Part shown: positions 3 to 31,396 of the stretch, piece after piece | Layout: every line of letters begins with the position of its first letter | How positions within the stretch are numbered: the first letter of the stretch is position 1 | Assembly (NCBI GenBank): GCA_037441385.1 | Contig: JBBISH010000081.1 | Coordinates: 1 to 31,396 of the forward strand | Direction of reading: 5' to 3' | DNA length: 31,396 bases | Origin: Myxococcales bacterium | GTDB taxonomy: Bacteria > Myxococcota_A > UBA9042 | Position numbers and translations under genes: made by a program | Notes under the pieces: model-generated | Database searches by the model: none | What the model was told of the DNA's origin: nothing | What the model saw: the letters and a program-made list of their open reading frames with translations, nothing else

Positions 3-3000
3 GACTGCGCCGGCAAAGACGACGGCGACCTGTGCAACGGCACGCTGTTCTGCGACAAACCCACCGGCAGCTGCAAAATCAACCCGGCGACCGTGGTCGT
101 GTGCCCCAGCGTCGACGACACGGCCTGCAGCAAGAACGTCTGCCAGTCCAAGACCGGCCAGTGCGCCATGGTCGCCGCCAGCGACGGCGCGGCCTGCGAT
201 GACCAAAACCCGTGTACCGCCAACGACCACTGCGACAAGGGCCAGTGCGCCGCCACCGCCAACACCTGCGTCTGCGCCAGCGACGCCGACTGCGCCAGCA
301 AGGACGACGGCGACCTGTGCAACGGCACGCTGTTCTGCAAGGCTGGGACCTGCCAGCTGAATCCCGCCACCGTCGTCAACTGCAGCAGCAGCTTTGACAC
401 CGCCTGTCTGCAGAACCAATGCGACAAGAAGGCGGGCACGTGCGCGATGCACCCGGTCAATCAGGGCCTGCCCTGCAGCGACGGCAACCCGTGCACCGCC
501 GCCGAGACTTGCCACCTGGGCGAGTGCAAAAGCGAAAGCAACCTGTGCGAGTGCCAGGCCAACGCCGACTGCGCCGCCAAAGACGACGGCAACTTCTGCA
601 ACGGCACGCTGTTCTGCGACAAATCCAGCGCACCCTACGTCTGCGCGGTCAATCCGGCCACGGTGGTGGCGTGCAAGTCGGTCGACGACACCTTCTGCGT
701 GGCCAACCAATGCCAACCCAAGACCGGGCTTTGCGAAATGACCGCCGTGCACCAAGGCCTGGGCTGCACCGACAACAACCCGTGCACCACCGCCGACGCG
801 TGCAAAAACGGCGCGTGCCAGGGCCAGATGGCGGACTGCCAAGACGACCAGGACTGCACCGTGGACCAGTGCGACCCGGTGCTCGGCTGCCTCAACAAGG
901 CCGACGCGGGCAAGTGCAACGACGAGAACCCATGCACCGTGGACAGTTGCAGCCCGGTCGCCGGCTGCCTGCACAAGCTGACTCTGGGCCCCTGCGACGA
1001 CGGCAACGCCTGCACCAGCGGCGACACCTGCGACGGCATCACCTGCGCGGGCAAGCCCAGCCTCTGCGACGACAAGAACCCCTGTACCACCGATAGTTGT
1101 GTGCCTGCGACGGGCTGTGCCCACGCCGCCAACACCTTGCCGTGCGACACCGGGTTGCCCTGCACGCCCATCGGCACCTGCGACGCCGGCGCTTGCGTGG
1201 CCGGGCCAAGTCCACTCTTCACGGTCCTTTTGGACGGAAAGGCCGAGGATCAGGTGGCCGCCGTCGTGGCTGGCGAGCTGGGCAGCGTCACCACCGTCGG
1301 CTCCACCACCTCGCAGGGCAAGGGTCAGCACGACGTATGGCTGGCGCGCATCTCGGCCGGGGGCAGCGTGCTCGGCCAGAGCACGATCGGCACCAGCGCC
1401 GACGAGTGGGCTCTGGGCGCCGTCGTCAGCAGCAGCGGCGGCGGCCTGGCGGTGGGGCGCCTGCAACCGGGACCTGGCGGCGGCAGCGACGGCTATTTGG
1501 TGCGCTTTGGCGCGGACTTGCAGGCCCAATGGAAACAGGTGGCCGGCGGCAGCGGCGACGATGAATTGCGCGCGGCGGCCTGGCTGCCCGGTGGCGACGC
1601 CATCGCGGTCGGCAAGCGTGGGGGCCCGGGCGGCGGCACTTGGTGGGCGGTACGCGTCTCGGCCGTGGGCACCGCATTGTGGGAAAAGGACTTGGGAATC
1701 ACGGGGTCGGCGCGCGCGGTGGCGGTCGACGCGGGCGACAAGATCTACGTGGCGGGCACAGTCGCCCAAGCCGACGGCAGCTCGCGCCTGGGCGCCGCGC
1801 TGATCGGCCCAACGGGCGGCATCGTCTGGCAAAAAGTGCTCACGGTCGCCGCAGGCGGCGCCGAGGCGGTGGCGGTCCTGCCTGGCGGCGACGCGGTGGT
1901 GGGTGGCTGGCAGGGCCCTGACTTTGACGATGCGCGCCTGGTTCGCCTTGGCGGCGACACGGGCACGGTGGTCTTTGACCTGCTCTACGGCGGCGCGGGA
2001 TCCGGAGTGTTTTCGGCCCTGAACGTGCGCAACGACGGCACGGTCGCCTTTGCCGGCCGCCGCGGTACCGACGCTGGGCCACAACTTTGGGTCGGGCGCA
2101 TCGATCTGTTGGGCAAGTTGGTCTGGGACCGCATGACTGGCGCGGCACTGGCGGGCGAACTGCCCGCGCTGGCCGTATTGGCGGGCGACGAAAACGTCCT
2201 GGCCACAACCTGGCAAGCCAGCGACACCCAGGGGCTAGCCGGCCGCGTGGTCCGCACGGATCCGTGGGGCTATACCACCTGCACCGATCAGGGCGACTGC
2301 GCCGGCAAAAAGGCCAGCGACTGCAACGACAACAACCCCTGCACCCACGATTTGTGTCAGGCCGTCTTGGGCTGCAGCCACCAGGTCAATGGCCTGCCGT
2401 GCGACGACGGCAACGCCTGCACCACCCAGGACACCTGCGACCAGGGCCAGTGTGCCAAGTTCTCATCGGGCAGCTGCGACGACAAAAATGCTTGTACCAC
2501 GGACGTGTGCGACAGCGAGGGTGGCTGCAGCCACAGCCCCGCCAGCGGCGCCTGCGACGACGGCAACGTCTGCACCAAGGGCGACGTGTGCGCGTTGGGT
2601 CTGTGCAAGCCCGGCACGTTCGACACCTGCGACGACGGCAACAGTTGCAGCGACGACACCTGCGACGCCAAGAAGGGCTGCGCGCACACGCTGAATTCGT
2701 CGCCCTGCCAGTCGGGCAACTGCACCTACGGCGACGTGTGCAGCGGCGGCTTCTGCGCCTCGTCGGGCAAGCCGGCGTTCTTGGACAAGTGGTTCGGCGG
2801 CGCGTTCAACGACCGCGCGCAATCCTTGGAGCAGGTGGGCGAAGACGGCTTCGTCTTGGGCGGCGAGACCTATCCCACCGCTCACCCCGACGGCTTGATC
2901 ACCCGCGTTGACGCCCAAGGCAACAAGCTGTGGGACGCCACGGTCGTGTACGCCGCCAACGCGGGCGATGACTACGTCCGTTCCGTGGTGCCCACCCCCT

Positions 3001-4223
3001 TTGGCTTCATGGCCGGCGGCTACACCAACGGCTGCAGCTACCGCGCCTTGCTCGCCCGCCTCGATCCAGACGGCAAGGTCAAGTGGGTCAAGACCCGCTC
3101 GCCCTCGGCGCCCAGCGACGGCGACTGCTGGGACGGCCAAGAGCGCGGCGCGCTTTTCGATCTGGTCGACGGCGGCGACGGCTCATTCGTCGGCGTTGGC
3201 TGGCGCACCCACGTCAACTGGACCGAGACGCGCGGCTGGCTCCACCGCATCGACCAGGATGGCAACGCCATGAGCAACCAGTACTACTTGAACGGCGGGG
3301 GCAACACGTCGTCGCTGCAAGGGGTCGAGCGCGCCAGCGGCGGCGGCTACATCCTCGCAGGCTACACCAACGTGACCTCGGCCGGCGGCTGGGATGGCTT
3401 GTTGATTCGCACCGACGGCGCGGGCGCGACCCAGTGGTGGGCCCGCTATGGCGGCAAGGGCAACGACGTCTTGACCGACGCGGTCCCGGCGCCCGACGGC
3501 GGCTTCTATGCCTTTGGCTACACGGCCTCGCTGGGCGCGGGCCTGGAAGACGGCTGGGTCGTTCGCGTCAGCCAAACCGGCGCGCAGCTTTGGCAAAAGA
3601 CCTACGGCGGCTCGGCTTCGGACGCCTGGAGCTCTGGACGACTTTTGCCCGGCGGCAACTTGGTGGTCAGCGGCAATACCCTGTCCAGCGGCGCCGGCGG
3701 CCAAGACGCGTGGCTGGCGGGCCTGGACGGCCAAGGCAACCTGCAGTGGCAAAAGACCGTGGGCAGTGCCAACGACGACGTGTGGAGCGATGTCCGCGTG
3801 CTCAAGAGCGGCGGCTACGCGCTGGCTGGCTACGGCTATCAACCCAAGGCAACTCAACAGGATATGCGCTTGCTGCTGAGCGACGCTTTTGGCCACCTGA
3901 CCTGTGCCGACGCCGGCAGCTGCTTTGCCAATGTCAGCGCCGACTGCGACGACGCAAACCCGTGCACCGCCGACAGCTGCTCCCCGCAGAGCGGCTGCAC
4001 GCACGTCAACGCAACCTGGGCCTGCAGCGACGGCGACGCCTGCACCACCGGCGAACTCTGCGCCGCCGGCAAGTGCAGTGGCGGCGACAAGGTGGTCTGC
4101 GACGACGGCAACCCTTGCACTACGGACAGTTGCGACCCCGGCAGCGGCTGCACCACCAGCAAGGCGGCCGACGGCACGGCCTGCGGCACGGGCAAGCTCT
4201 GCGCGGCGGGGGTTTGCAAGTAG
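3..4223 (+). CDS. Large Cys-rich repeat surface/secreted protein with two beta-propeller-like domains (5'-partial)
   Basis: The frame is open from base 3 (DCAGKDDGDLCNGTLFCDK...), so the true start lies outside the window. Many CxDxNxCTxDxC and CNGTLFC repeats flank two Gly/Trp-rich propeller-type regions (about 1200-2270 and 2780-3895, W-x-K-T-Y-G-G-type blades). Confidence 0.85.
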   Translation, partial: DCAGKDDGDLCNGTLFCDKPTGSCKINPATVVVCPSVDDTACSKNVCQSKTGQCAMVAASDGAACDDQNPCTANDHCDKGQCAATANTCVCASDADCASKDDGDLCNGTLFCKAGTCQLNPATVVNCSSSFDTACLQNQCDKKAGTCAMHPVNQGLPCSDGNPCTAAETCHLGECKSESNLCECQANADCAAKDDGNFCNGTLFCDKSSAPYVCAVNPATVVACKSVDDTFCVANQCQPKTGLCEMTAVHQGLGCTDNNPCTTADACKNGACQGQMADCQDDQDCTVDQCDPVLGCLNKADAGKCNDENPCTVDSCSPVAGCLHKLTLGPCDDGNACTSGDTCDGITCAGKPSLCDDKNPCTTDSCVPATGCAHAANTLPCDTGLPCTPIGTCDAGACVAGPSPLFTVLLDGKAEDQVAAVVAGELGSVTTVGSTTSQGKGQHDVWLARISAGGSVLGQSTIGTSADEWALGAVVSSSGGGLAVGRLQPGPGGGSDGYLVRFGADLQAQWKQVAGGSGDDELRAAAWLPGGDAIAVGKRGGPGGGTWWAVRVSAVGTALWEKDLGITGSARAVAVDAGDKIYVAGTVAQADGSSRLGAALIGPTGGIVWQKVLTVAAGGAEAVAVLPGGDAVVGGWQGPDFDDARLVRLGGDTGTVVFDLLYGGAGSGVFSALNVRNDGTVAFAGRRGTDAGPQLWVGRIDLLGKLVWDRMTGAALAGELPALAVLAGDENVLATTWQASDTQGLAGRVVRTDPWGYTTCTDQGDCAGKKASDCNDNNPCTHDLCQAVLGCSHQVNGLPCDDGNACTTQDTCDQGQCAKFSSGSCDDKNACTTDVCDSEGGCSHSPASGACDDGNVCTKGDVCALGLCKPGTFDTCDDGNSCSDDTCDAKKGCAHTLNSSPCQSGNCTYGDVCSGGFCASSGKPAFLDKWFGGAFNDRAQSLEQVGEDGFVLGGETYPTAHPDGLITRVDAQGNKLWDATVVYAANAGDDYVRSVVPTPFGFMAGGYTNGCSYRALLARLDPDGKVKWVKTRSPSAPSDGDCWDGQERGALFDLVDGGDGSFVGVGWRTHVNWTETRGWLHRIDQDGNAMSNQYYLNGGGNTSSLQGVERASGGGYILAGYTNVTSAGGWDGLLIRTDGAGATQWWARYGGKGNDVLTDAVPAPDGGFYAFGYTASLGAGLEDGWVVRVSQTGAQLWQKTYGGSASDAWSSGRLLPGGNLVVSGNTLSSGAGGQDAWLAGLDGQGNLQWQKTVGSANDDVWSDVRVLKSGGYALAGYGYQPKATQQDMRLLLSDAFGHLTCADAGSCFANVSADCDDANPCTADSCSPQSGCTHVNATWACSDGDACTTGELCAAGKCSGGDKVVCDDGNPCTTDSCDPGSGCTTSKAADGTACGTGKLCAAGVCK

Positions 4224-9036: not shown

Positions 9037-9202
9037 GTGGGGCGTCCTGCTTGGGGCACGTAGTCCCCAGTGCGAGCACCGGGTTCCAAGCGCGTTGGGC
9101 GACAAGGGCCTGTGTCGGAGCAACTCGATCGTTCACGTGCGCGCAGGACGGCGCGATGCCCTGTAGGGGCGCGCACCCACCGGTTGCCTGGAGTGCGACT
9201 CA

Positions 9203-9334
9203 TACGATTTCCGTCCAAATCGGCTCGAAAACTTCGACAATTCTTCGGGCCCGAACCGGGGTCCCCGCCTGATTCTCGCCGGTTGCAGACCGGGTCAGAG
9301 GAACCGTACAGGCGTGAATCAGACGGGGTTCGTA
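9203..9334 (+). mobile_element. 132-bp MITE-like element, intact, TCA target duplication
   Basis: Flanked by TCA at 9200-9202 and 9335-9337. Imperfect TIRs tacgatttccgtccaaatc / tacgaaccccgtctgattc. 116/132 identical to the reverse complement of 20960-21091. Confidence 0.9.
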
Positions 9335-9389
9335 TCACCCAGCACCAGGAACAGGTCCCGACCAAATCGACTAGATTTTGCACGGGCCC

Positions 9390-19339: not shown

Positions 19340-19416
19340 CACTAACTCGACCCAATTCGCGCCTCTACGGCTTGCCTGACCCGTTCTGCGACCGGCGAGA
19401 ACCAGGCGAGGTCCCC
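19340..19416 (-). mobile_element. Partial copy of the MITE-like element (hairpin half)
   Basis: attcgcgcctctacggcttgcctgacccgttctgcgaccggcgagaaccaggcgaggtcccc matches the first about 77 nt of 20960-21091. Weak similarity resumes near 19470-19515. Confidence 0.75.
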
Positions 19417-19664
19417 AACGCCGGCTCCAGGTCCACACCTGGTACCCGGCCCAGAGCGCCGACCTTGCGCACCACCAAAATCTGCGTCACGTTCAGGTCC
19501 CGTGTGTACGCAACGGTCGCCGTTCGCGTATCCTGATGCGCCGGCAAGACCTGTCTCAGCGACGGCTGCAGGCAGGGTTGGCCGTCAAGGCGGACCACGA
19601 GACGAATCCACGGGTTGAAAAGGGGGCGGTGGCGCAACGGCGTGCCCCCCAAGGTTGGGTACAG

Positions 19665-20889: not shown

Positions 20890-21155
20890 TACGTGCTCCG
20901 TCCGAAGCGTAGCGAAACTCCCCGCCCTACAGCGGGCCCGAATTGGGTTCCCCGTCTAATACGCACCCCACCTGATTCGCGCCTGTACGGCTTTTCTGAC
21001 CCGTTCTGCAACTGGCGAGAATCAGGCGGGGACCCCGGTTCGGGCCCGAAGAATTGCCCGAGTTTTCGATCCGATTCGGACGGAATTGGTATAAATCTCG
21101 CCGGTTGCAGGACAGCTGTCCAAGTCGTCCAGGCGCGATTCCGCTGGGGTTCGCC
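20890..21155 (+). mobile_element. Older MITE copy (20890-20959 plus 21095-21155) split by a nested copy
   Basis: The left part aligns without gaps to the first 70 nt of 9203-9334 and the right part to the remainder. Rejoining at one TAA gives 131 bp. Confidence 0.8.
20960..21091 (-). mobile_element. 132-bp MITE-like element, intact, TAA target duplication, nested
   Basis: TAA at 20957-20959 and 21092-21094. TAC...GTA ends. 88% identical to the copy at 9203-9334 in the opposite orientation. Confidence 0.9.
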
Positions 21156-24562: not shown

Positions 24563-24694
24563 TACGCACCCCGCCGGATTCACGCCCAAACGGATTCTGT
24601 GACCGGTTCTACAACCGGCGAGAATCGGGCGGGGACCCCAGTTCGGGCACCAAGAATTGCCCCAGCTTTCGCTGCAATACGGACGAAGCTGACA
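24563..24694 (-). mobile_element. 132-bp MITE-like element
   Basis: Ungapped match to 20960-21091 (tacgcaccccgccggattcacgcc...ggcgagaatcgggcggggacccc...). Flanks are TGG/TGA. Confidence 0.88.
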
Positions 24695-26464: not shown

Positions 26465-26696
26465 GACAGAAATGTGGGGGGCATTTTCTACTGCCGCATT
26501 GCAAAGGACTTTCTGTCCGCCTGGCCCTCCCGGCCCGGCGAGTAGAGGTTGGGGGGCATTTTCTGAAGCCGGTGTTCCGGCTCCCGGCCGGAGTGACGTT
26601 GTTGCGGCGCGGCCGCCGGTTCGGGCAAACCTCGCGGCTGCGGCAGGCGAAGTCGAACAATTCCGAACGGTAGAAAATGCCCCCCATCTTTCCGTC
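26465..26696. repeat. 27-bp inverted repeat pair with a third internal copy of the core TGGGGGGCATTTTCT
   Basis: Arms 26465-26491 and 26670-26696 match at 24/27. A third direct core copy lies at 26550-26564. Confidence 0.85.
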
Positions 26697-26728: not shown

Positions 26729-26770
26729 GACGGGGCACTGGTCATGTGCGCGACAAGGTGGAGCATGGCA

Positions 26771-27580
26771 ATGGCATCGAACTGGGCTGGTCGCCGCTTG
26801 GTGGCGGCGGTGGTGGCACTAGCGGGCACGTGCACGGCCGTGATGGCCGTGGCGATGCCGATCTACGTCAAGACGTTGACCGGCAAGACGATTCCCCTTG
26901 ATGTGGCCCCCAGCGAGTCGATCGAGGGCGTCAAGGCGATGATTCAAGCCAAAGAGGGCTACCCGCCGGCCGCGCAGACCTTGATGTTTGCCGGCAAGAC
27001 CTTGTTGGAGAACCACACCCTGTCTGACTACAACATCCAGAAAGAGGCGACGCTGAACCTGATCATCGATTTCTGCGTCGCCAACGCCGTGGTCTGCACG
27101 GCCGCCGACGACTGCCACACCGCCGGCACCTGCGCCCCGGCTACCGGACTCTGCAGCGCCGCTACCGCCACCGACGGCACCGCCTGCAGCGATGGCGACG
27201 CGTGCACCAGCGCCGATCAATGCCTGGCCGGCCTCTGCAAAGGGACGGCGGTGCCGGGGTGCGGCGACGTCGACGCGGGCGCAACTCAACCGGATTCTGG
27301 GACTATGGACGCGGTCACCAGCGCCGACGCCAGTACAGCTACTGCGGCGGATGCGTCCGCCGACCCGGACGGGGGCGCCTCTACGGCCCCGCTCGCCGAT
27401 GCCCCAAGTGGAGACGGCAAAGGAGCGCAGGATGCCGCCTCGTCCCCGGCCGAGAGCGGCGGCGACTCCGGGTGCCAGGCAGCCACCGGGGCGGGCAGCT
27501 GCGGCACGTGGCTGACCCTTGCCTTGCTGGGGGCGATGGTGGTGCGGCGGCGTGCCGACCGGCGAGTCGCGTGGCCGTAG
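26771..27580 (+). CDS. Secreted, surface-anchored ubiquitin-domain protein (signal peptide, ubiquitin, Cys-rich repeat, linker, MYXO-CTERM-like tail)
   Basis: GGAG 7 nt before ATG 26771 (alternative start 26765). Ubiquitin domain 26855-27067 [17 protein letters not shown]...FAGK...[26 protein letters not shown] repeat. GC...[15 protein letters not shown] tail. Confidence 0.92.
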
Positions 27581-29722: not shown

Positions 29723-31396
29723 CTAATTCGCGCGGCAAGCCGTCAGCTGCAAGTACGGCATGCTGACGTCGACGGCCGATAGGCCGGTGCTCGCCGAGCT
29801 GAAGGCGCCGATGTCGGTGTCGTGCGTATGGGCGCCTGCGGCCGCCGAGTTGAAGGCCGGGATGTTGACGTCGTGGGTGTGGGCGCCGTCGGTGCTCGAG
29901 GCGAACGCGCCGATGTTGACGTCGTGCGTGTGGGCGCCCGCGCCGGCGGTCGAGTGGTAGGCCTGGTAGGGGCCATTGTCTTTGCCCCAGCTGGGCCCCG
30001 TACCGCCCGAAACGTTCCAGTCGTCTTGCAGCGTGTAGATGGGGTGAGTGTGGTCGCCCACGCCGGTGGTGGTGGTATTAGGCGGATCGATGGTGTGCGC
30101 GTGGGCGCCGGCGTTGGTCGAGGTCGTGTTCGGCGGATCCACCGAGTGCACGTGGTCGCCCACGCCGGTCGAGGTGGTGTTGGGCGGGTCGATGGTGTGC
30201 GTGTGCGCCGGCACGTCGGTGATCTGTCGCAGCGCCTTGTCGCCCAGAGCCGTGCCCACCGTGGCGCCAACGGTGCCACCGGCGTTCAAGCCAATGACCA
30301 CGCGACCGCGCAGGGGGGTGTACTCGGTCCAGCCCGAGGGGCACGGACCGGCAAAGAAGGCAATCATGCCGGTGGTGAGCATACCGGCGCTGCCCACCCA
30401 GTCGGTGGCGATGCGGCCGTGCTCGATCTTGGGCATCGCGTAGCGCAGCCACGACGAGTCGCCCCCAGAGGCCTGACCCGAGCCATACACGCGCATGTAG
30501 GCCGCGACCTTGGTCGACGAGGTCAGCTGCACCGAGACCTGCACGCGCTTCCACGTCTGGTCGGTGTTGGGGATGGCCAGTGTCGTGCTGGTGCCAAAGC
30601 AGTCGAGCTTGACCTTGGCGTTGGTGCCGGTGCTGTCGGGTCGGCGCACGTACGTGGAGCAGGTGACCCAGACGTTGGCCTCGTCGGCGATGTTGATGTG
30701 GCTATTTAGCGTGAGCGACTCGCTGGTGCCGTCGCCGGTGCTGCGGAGGTCGACGCCCCAGGTGCCCACGCTCTCGTTCACCAGCGTACTGCCTTGTGCG
30801 GCGTTTGCGTCGGCCAAAGACAGCTTGGCCAGCTTGTAGTTGACGGCGGTGACGTCGACGCTGCAGTTGTCGGGGATGCCGTTGCCGTCCAGGTCGGCCA
30901 AAGTGGGGTTCGTCACGGTGTTTTCACCCACTGCGCCCAGCATCGCCGCTGCCGCGCAGCCCCATTTGCCGCCACTGTACTGCAGTGTTTCGCCGTCTTT
31001 GCAGGCCTCGCCCAGCTTGGCCGCGGTCACCGCGCCGTCCTTGATCATGCCGGTTGTCACCGCGGCGGACTGGCCTTCGTTGACGTACTGCCCATCGGCG
31101 TAGACCGTGTCCAGCGCGAACGTGCCGCTGGCCAGCGTCAGGCCCGTGCCATTCTTGTAGACCAGGGTGGTCGCGCAGGTGACCTTGCCCGCCGCGTCGA
31201 TGCCCGTGACGGTATCGCCCGCCTTGCACGCCTGGTTCGAGGTGGCAAAATCCGTGCCGCTGTAGGCTTTGGGGTCGCGCAGGTGACCTTGCCCGCCGCG
31301 TCGATGCCCGTAACGGTGTCGCCCGCCTTGCACGCCTGGTTCGAGGTGGCAAAATCGGCACCACCGTAGGCCTTGGGCGCTGCGCAGGTGACTTTG
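29723..31396 (-). CDS. Phage tail-fibre-like protein (collar domain plus HxH needle), 5'-partial, with a 1-bp frameshift near 31272
   Basis: Collar motif GMIAFF...CPSGW...LRGRVVIG, seven HxH motifs, terminal MPYLQLTAC. Upstream 35-aa repeats (KVTCAxPKAYxGxDFATSNQACKAGDTVTGIDAAG) continue to the window edge in a shifted frame. Confidence 0.8.
   Translation of the reverse strand, partial: QSHLRSAQGLRWCRFCHLEPGVQGGRHRYGHRRGGQGHLRDPKAYSGTDFATSNQACKAGDTVTGIDAAGKVTCATTLVYKNGTGLTLASGTFALDTVYADGQYVNEGQSAAVTTGMIKDGAVTAAKLGEACKDGETLQYSGGKWGCAAAAMLGAVGENTVTNPTLADLDGNGIPDNCSVDVTAVNYKLAKLSLADANAAQGSTLVNESVGTWGVDLRSTGDGTSESLTLNSHINIADEANVWVTCSTYVRRPDSTGTNAKVKLDCFGTSTTLAIPNTDQTWKRVQVSVQLTSSTKVAAYMRVYGSGQASGGDSSWLRYAMPKIEHGRIATDWVGSAGMLTTGMIAFFAGPCPSGWTEYTPLRGRVVIGLNAGGTVGATVGTALGDKALRQITDVPAHTHTIDPPNTTSTGVGDHVHSVDPPNTTSTNAGAHAHTIDPPNTTTTGVGDHTHPIYTLQDDWNVSGGTGPSWGKDNGPYQAYHSTAGAGAHTHDVNIGAFASSTDGAHTHDVNIPAFNSAAAGAHTHDTDIGAFSSASTGLSAVDVSMPYLQLTACRAN
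31173..31396 (-). repeat. Tandem 105-bp coding repeat (one unit is 104 bp)
   Basis: gcgcaggtga recurs at 31173, 31277 and 31382 (spacing 104 and 105). Confidence 0.9.

Follow-up and report, generated by a model that had tools for sequence, protein, structure and literature searches.

What does a bacterium do with a eukaryote-type ubiquitin placed at the head of a predicted surface protein? The question is raised by a gene on contig JBBISH010000081.1 of the Myxococcales bacterium assembly GCA_037441385.1, which was analysed in its entirety as a window of 31,396 nucleotides (nt). The open reading frame (ORF) at 26771–27580 of the forward strand is open throughout in translation and encodes 269 amino acids (aa), in which a signal-like peptide, a ubiquitin domain, a Cys-rich stalk, a linker and a tail comprising a Cys motif, a helix and an Arg cluster follow one another (Table 1). 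Comparative sequence analysis indicates that it is one diverged member of a widespread class of proteins, distributed across many phyla, that are predicted to display ubiquitin outside the cell. To this class the locus appears to add a MYXO-CTERM-anchored form, four relatives from the same taxonomic class and a copy whose binding patches are remodelled on an intact core.

A ubiquitin domain without its conjugation tail

Residues 29–99 of the protein align without gaps to ubiquitin residues 1–71 with 47/71 identities (counted by hand on a PDB alignment; single-domain E ~6e-25), in agreement with the count in an earlier note made on this DNA from the letters alone. The score of 72 bits against PF00240 (gathering cut-off 25.4) places the domain in the ubiquitin family. 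The replacement of the RLRGG tail by a Cys-rich repeat, a linker and a GC/transmembrane/RRR terminus, as described in that note, was likewise recovered: positions 72–76 read DFCVA, with R72, R74 and Gly-Gly all lost, and a further 170 residues of stalk and anchor follow the domain. Because the C-terminal Gly-Gly is gone, the protein should be incapable of being activated by an E1 or freed at that site, and is predicted to be a non-conjugatable ubiquitin. Residues 1–71 are free of Cys; the first one occurs at ubiquitin position 74 and in the alignment falls within the ten-Cys repeat of the host.

At the N-terminus, two Arg residues and a hydrophobic stretch, whose hydropathy over 15 residues reaches 2.27, precede an A-V-A directly before the Met. 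The assignment of a signal peptide is heuristic, combining hydropathy with small residues at −3/−1 before Met1; if correct, it would leave Met1 of ubiquitin as the mature N-terminus, as the note proposed. An additional in-frame ATG lies at 26765, just 5′ of the ATG at 26771. Two other export routes were considered and rejected. The Arg pair that would suit Tat export is present here, yet is seen in only 9 of the 73 signal-bearing relatives. A lipoprotein reading of the L-A-G-T-C21 motif encounters a Thr at −1, at odds with the usual lipobox, although it may still apply in this phylum.

The assembly comprises 221 contigs totalling 6.6 Mb with 66.9% GC, at 90.9% completeness and 1.2% contamination. 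The GC content of third codon positions (GC3) is 0.87 in the ubiquitin segment versus 0.81–0.89 in five neighboring genes, and the genes flanking the ubiquitin gene code for an AMP-binding ligase and a SnoaL protein (Pfam). All sampled words of the region are present in one sequencing run, possibly the source of the assembly itself; no RNA run was found among the listed holders of these words. As its host-type parts are joined in-frame and independent relatives exist, a chimera is unlikely, and the sequence data indicate that the gene is real and bacterial.

A putative anchor resembling the sorting tails of the host

MYXO-CTERM tails are defined by an invariant Cys motif, a hydrophobic helix and a C-terminal Arg cluster, and in the published model the proteins that bear them leave through Sec, receive a lipid on the Cys, are cut by myxosortase and reach the surface by type II secretion, with the lipidation step being predicted rather than demonstrated (PMC11980579). 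The tripartite design that the earlier note assigned to this family is present in the ubiquitin protein, with GC at residues 234–235, a helix at ~247–258 and RRR at 259–261, but the tail scores 14 bits on TIGR03901, below the curated cut-off of 20. The same genome contains 12 TIGR03901 matches above the cut-off (150 of 257 candidates scored). In a profile built from these 12, the tail ranks 23rd of 34,888 ORF tails (E 0.0049), where ranks 1–10 are training sequences of the profile and the neighbors in the ranking share the same design. The genome further encodes the myxosortase core NF040914 (108.6 bits; cut-off 100) and the type II secretin GspD (TIGR02517; 439 bits vs. a cut-off of 351), while the narrower MrtX model remains below its cut-off. 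The tail is therefore best described from its sequence as MYXO-CTERM-like, matching the host genome's own tails despite the sub-threshold family score. Together, sequence, tail and sorting genes support the prediction of a surface-tethered, non-conjugatable ubiquitin, and the MYXO-CTERM tails, myxosortase core and secretin also bear out the identification of the source as a probable myxobacterium.

The ten-Cys module between ubiquitin and linker yields tblastn matches on dozens of contigs of the same genome and is 38–48% identical to three repeats at window positions 81–4094. It has no Pfam match, and its fold prediction from a four-sequence alignment was unusable (mean predicted local distance difference test score of 44). 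It is of a type common in the large exported proteins of this genome and probably forms a disulfide-bonded stalk. At 3–4220 (+), the window also encodes 1,406 aa or more of an open-ended protein built from this type of Cys-rich repeat.

A multi-phylum class of signal-plus-ubiquitin proteins

The gene is the sole PF00240 match in its genome. Counting this genome, carriers number 10/107 in its taxonomic class and 14/401 in a sample of the phylum. Among the nine other matches in the taxonomic class (106 other genomes), four (L006, L007, L008 and L014) have a signal-like peptide right before Met1, lack Gly-Gly and bear large extracellular repeats; the rest are three short proteins with ubiquitin at the end after an N-terminal extension, one protein at a contig edge and one fragment. 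The short proteins (L010:1204-1725, L012:1318-1725 and L013:1-516) end in RLRGG, RKRGG or RLRKI, and that of L010 looks exported, yet keeps the terminal Gly-Gly. A reverse transcriptase gene lies immediately upstream of the fusion gene of one relative (L007:2585-3844, −).

A scan of prokaryotes with one genome per species recovered at least 581 relatives among 602 pattern matches, contaminants included. The statistics for the class rest on the best 80 of these, from which one duplicate was omitted along with seven loci that were polyubiquitin or lay on tiny contigs and are likely contaminants, leaving 72 examined. A full domain is present in 71/72 loci, and 62/72 show a signal-like stretch with a small residue right before Met1. 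The same signal rule holds for 73 of 87 related domains versus 9 of 293 internal Met controls. Met1 is retained in all 72 aligned domains, always at the predicted mature end. Gly75-Gly76 is missing in 64 of the 73 signal-bearing domains and kept in nine (terminal in four), and none of the 73 has a Cys in positions 1–76. Judged by their names, the carriers presumably include Bacillota, Pseudomonadota, Verrucomicrobiota, Bacteroidota, Actinomycetota, Synergistota and others. A whole-proteome homologue search was uninformative on bacterial fusions, with almost all of the 120 matches listed being multi-repeat or eukaryote-type ubiquitins. Five loci (L028, L034, L051, L060 and L064) contain tandem pairs of signal-plus-ubiquitin genes, mostly one near-canonical and one diverged copy, and two archaea-labelled loci (L023 and L098) have a near-canonical ubiquitin as an internal domain with no signal directly before it.

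Downstream partners were scanned with Pfam in 49 of the 73 signal-bearing regions. An anchoring or display family (E ≤ 0.001; four below the family cut-off) is found in 22/49: autotransporter barrels in 12, IPTL-CTERM in three, type IX secretion system sorting domains and dockerins in two each, and SLH, choline-binding and OmpA domains in one each. Some of the remaining regions have stalk repeats, 12/49 have no match, and an enzyme or toxin domain above cut-off was found in 0/49. In 12 of 68 complete members, 50 aa or fewer follow ubiquitin. With anchors and stalks as partners and many members possessing so little beyond ubiquitin, the domain often appears to be the only obvious payload, which separate lineages seem to have attached to their own display systems. 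Among 122 ORFs flanking the signal-bearing loci (one per side, trimmed to 420 aa) no conserved neighbor, immunity-like family, E2 or JAB was detected; they belong to scattered housekeeping families. The sole ThiF/E1-like gene among them (L035:2333-2869) is upstream of a ubiquitin-IPTL-CTERM gene.

A conserved core with remodelled binding patches

Across the class, the GC3 of the ubiquitin segment tracks that of the rest of the gene (r 0.94, n = 57, range 0.15–0.97), while the median identity to eukaryotic ubiquitin is 0.90 (best-80 set; reference from named eukaryotic records). Outside the taxonomic class of our gene, the ratio of nonsynonymous to synonymous substitution rates (dN/dS) is 0.04–0.16 in all six measurable close pairs; in the two further of the eight pairs synonymous sites are saturated, with a nonsynonymous difference (pN) of ~0.03.

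The copy in the window differs from ubiquitin (position 23 of the reference taken as Ile) at 24 positions, and only two of the 72 relatives are more distant. The changes spare the core, affecting 0/18 core positions versus 24/53 others (Fisher p 0.0003). They fall on the Ile44, Ile36 and Phe4 patches, each of which keeps one of four residues and has three changed, the substitutions being I44M, H68N, V70I, R42T, Q49T, I36Y, L71I, F4Y, Q2P and T14P. Retained are 6/7 lysines including K48 and K63, L8–K11 (with L8-T9-G10) and residues 55–64. A further set of positions, 39, 40, 42, 49 and 51, which lie on either side of the C-terminal tail in the structure of ubiquitin, has a change rate of 0.31 in the 51 members without RLR versus 0.03 in the 20 that keep it, while other surface positions change alike in both (0.09 with RLR lost vs. 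0.07 with RLR kept). All five are changed in our copy, and relatives in its taxonomic class share changes there. This pattern is compatible with repacking of the surface that E1 and deubiquitinases formerly recognised.

A tree of 78 domains (71 aa) groups the diverged sequences and places this copy on a long branch. As support reaches 0.9 or more at only 4/76 nodes, we name no donor and claim no monophyly. On its sequence, the copy belongs to the diverged end of the class and can be described as a natural ubiquitin variant with remodelled patches on an intact core.

Relationship to known systems

The closest precedents are BfUbb and BoUbb of Bacteroides fragilis and B. ovatus, which share with our protein a eukaryote-derived ubiquitin and the lack of Gly-Gly (PMC3352274, PMC5705921); their signal peptidase I (SPase I) signal before Met1 has a heuristically predicted counterpart here, and BfUbb has 63% identity to ubiquitin (PMC3352274) as compared to 66% here. 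However, BfUbb is a free, diffusible 76-aa toxin that kills related bacteria: it enters through a SusCD pair (ButCD) and binds a periplasmic peptidyl-prolyl isomerase (PPIase), and this binding and its activity depend on an intramolecular C-terminal disulfide (PMC11467351, PMC11901371). The protein in the window is neither a free 76-aa form nor equipped with that disulfide, and has a stalk and surface anchor instead. With MYXO-CTERM proteins such as TraA it shares the signal, a distal domain, Cys-rich repeats, a disordered linker and the Cys/helix/Arg tail (TIGR03901; PMC11980579, 10.1101/2023.06.07.544157); it differs from the known ones in having ubiquitin as the distal domain and a tail below the family cut-off. 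The main text of PMC11980579 does not contain the word "ubiquitin".

Eukaryotic ubiquitin precursors (polyubiquitin and ribosomal fusions; PF00240) resemble it in sequence, in fold, as judged by the 66% gap-free identity, and in the placement of ubiquitin before its partner. In the eukaryotic fusions RLRGG is retained and serves as the cleavage site, whereas here the tail is gone, export is predicted and three binding patches are altered. The secreted ubiquitin extension protein of Globodera rostochiensis also has a signal directly before ubiquitin and acts outside the producing cell, but is eukaryotic and unanchored, and its 12-aa extension is removed by cleavage inside the plant (PMC5705921). 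The Bil and related bacterial operons (E1, E2, JAB and Ubl; PMC11601603, PMC11601596) likewise contain a ubiquitin-fold protein, together with conjugation enzymes; by contrast, our gene lacks Gly-Gly, is predicted to be exported and has the AMP-binding and SnoaL neighbors in place of E1, E2 or JAB genes. ThiF and JAB matches lie on other contigs of the genome, and a genome search with PF00179, run without a positive control, gave no match.

The earlier note knew of no characterised protein of this architecture. Our literature searches, in which subscription journals were poorly covered, likewise found no paper describing the tethered class. The protein is not singular, being part of a large multi-phylum class. 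The tethered class is not described in the portions consulted of PMC11601603 (term search) or PMC10892293. The methods of PMC11467351 mention a homologue search for BfUbb in other bacteria, and such relatives may have been seen there; a term search of three of its supplements returned nothing on BfUbb homologues elsewhere.

Proposed function and alternatives

We propose that the gene encodes a folded, non-conjugatable ubiquitin on the tip of a disulfide-bonded stalk, acting as a surface binding module with a specificity shifted from that of ubiquitin, a reading in which our confidence is middling. Following the published MYXO-CTERM model, Sec export and signal cleavage would expose Met1 of ubiquitin, after which a lipid on the Cys, a cut by myxosortase and passage through type II secretion would bring the protein to the outer face of the cell. 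Held there by its C-terminus, ubiquitin would present the geometry of a mono-ubiquitylated surface protein. Class-wide, ubiquitin itself would be a non-catalytic payload, whose closeness to the eukaryotic sequence might reflect recognition by a partner outside the cell; the most plausible candidates are ubiquitin-binding proteins of microbial eukaryotes. In our copy, where the fold appears to be under selection and the classic patches have changed, the product may be a ubiquitin variant with altered or weakened specificity and an adhesin-like role.

Several observations weigh against this proposal. The tail does not reach the curated threshold of its family. Relative to its kin in the taxonomic class, this copy has a dN/dS of 0.25–0.43, which relaxed selection would also explain, and 8/24 of its changes are to Ala, Pro or Gly, fitting relaxed selection under GC pressure equally well as re-tuning. 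Occurrence is patchy, with a PF00240 match in 0/36 genomes of the same family. Conservation in the class is overstated due to the choice of the best 80 of at least 581 relatives and a search pattern that fixes residues 50–59, and kin among the members are not independent. Finally, the core and patch residues were taken from lists rather than calculated from a structure.

A faithful mimic or decoy, an option that the earlier note had listed, would still bind the ubiquitin-binding domains, deubiquitinases or ligases of eukaryotes (protists or fungi), aiding attachment or altering handling after engulfment. Most members of the class indeed share ~90% of their residues with eukaryotic ubiquitin even though their codons are host-like, our copy keeps L8-T9-G10, 6/7 lysines and residues 55–64, and in vitro BfUbb interferes with the E1 of eukaryotes (PMC3352274). 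The ten substitutions in the three best-known binding patches, a divergence exceeded by only 2/72 relatives, and the loss of R72, R74 and Gly-Gly weaken the faithful version of the idea, which we regard as rather unlikely for this copy.

Slightly less probable is that ubiquitin has no specific partner and serves as a stable, fast-folding N-terminal cap that aids folding or export or shields the mature end from proteases. This would be in line with Met1 at the predicted mature end in 72/72 domains, with the restriction of conservation to the core in our copy and with Pro at position 2, which would resist aminopeptidases. However, many members have little to assist, consisting of ubiquitin alone or with a short anchor or barrel, and most conserve surface residues that a mere cap would not need.

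The gene could also be a decaying passenger, a recently captured member of the class with a drifting surface and little function in this lineage. Its absence from 36/36 same-family genomes, the long branch, the dN/dS against its kin and the repeat element just upstream would agree with such a history, but the reading frame has stayed open, 18/18 core residues are unchanged, the ten paired cysteines and the two targeting signals are preserved and the codons are fully host-like, rendering decay improbable.

The antibacterial weapon of the BfUbb type, the first example given in the earlier note, would be shed or passed by contact or vesicles to inhibit a periplasmic target of competitors, e.g., a PPIase. 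Both proteins are signal-bearing ubiquitins that start at Met1, lack Gly-Gly and diverge to a similar degree, and surface divergence could reflect a new bacterial target. Yet the domain is tethered and Cys-free in 1–71, whereas BfUbb is free, ButCD-imported and disulfide-dependent (PMC11467351, PMC11901371); a Cys in 1–76 occurs in 0/73 signal-bearing relatives, the 122 flanking ORFs offer no conserved neighbor or immunity-like family, and bovine ubiquitin was inactive against the B. fragilis strains tested (PMC5705921). The weapon is thus not supported as the leading idea and is distinctly improbable. An assembly chimera or eukaryotic contamination, at which the 221-contig assembly and some contaminant-like polyubiquitin scraps among the scan matches might hint, is very improbable against the in-frame union with a host-type signal, repeat and tail, the host GC3, the bacterial neighbors, the same repeat type on the contig, the same layout in four independent genomes of the taxonomic class and 24 substitutions foreign to ordinary eukaryotic ubiquitin.

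Other features of the window

The intergenic element directly upstream of the ubiquitin gene is 232 nt long with a folding z of −4.9, and the genome contains 60 copies of its core 15-mer; the element is probably not specific to this gene. A second palindromic intergenic repeat family of ~134 nt is present at window positions 20960–21093, 24563–24685, 19340–19462 and 9202–9335. With blastn the family gives 356 matches across the genome, some of them at 100% identity, and it is possibly an active miniature mobile element. At 29723–31333 (−) the window encodes a protein truncated by the end of the contig, in which His-x-His motifs recur and the C-terminus looks tail-fibre-like by eye; it has no Pfam or NCBIfam match.

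Table 1. Features of the ubiquitin gene and its upstream region (window coordinates; MITE, miniature inverted-repeat transposable element; REP, repetitive extragenic palindromic)
Feature	Position	Strand	Basis
Upstream intergenic repeat element, 27-nt terminal inverted repeats (MITE/REP-like)	26465..26696		sequence repeats
Shine-Dalgarno-like GGAG	26760..26763	+	sequence; 7 nt 5′ of ATG at 26771
Predicted Sec/SPase I signal peptide, 28 aa, A-V-A end	26771..26854	+	hydropathy, −3/−1 rule
Eukaryote-type ubiquitin domain, residues 1–71, predicted mature N-terminus	26855..27067	+	PF00240, PDB alignment
Ten-cysteine repeat module, probable disulfide-bonded stalk	27068..27262	+	tblastn within genome, repeat alignment
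Ala/Asp/Ser/Thr/Gly/Pro-rich low-complexity linker, 69 aa	27263..27469	+	sequence; disorder inferred
MYXO-CTERM-like sorting tail: GC, second Cys, short hydrophobic helix, RRR, stop	27470..27580	+	TIGR03901, genome-specific profile

Implications

Eukaryote-like ubiquitin has been described from just a handful of bacteria (PMC5705921), as compared to the at least 581 stretches, contaminants among them, recovered here from a one-genome-per-species collection. Cultured carriers among the scan matches, namely Ruminococcus albus, Saccharibacillus, Dyella, Neptunomonas and Pseudovibrio, make the class directly testable. Tentatively, and with clearly less confidence than in the proposal for this gene, we suggest that bacteria of many phyla have, time and again, joined eukaryotic ubiquitin to their own display systems, offering microbial eukaryotes a surface that looks pre-ubiquitylated, and that in some lineages, including the taxonomic class studied here, the domain may have been freed from mimicry to become a ubiquitin-variant binding scaffold with new specificities. 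Most of the best-scoring relatives examined are predicted to be exported and tethered and appear to be under purifying selection, pointing to a candidate extracellular role for ubiquitin at the interface between bacteria and their neighbors.
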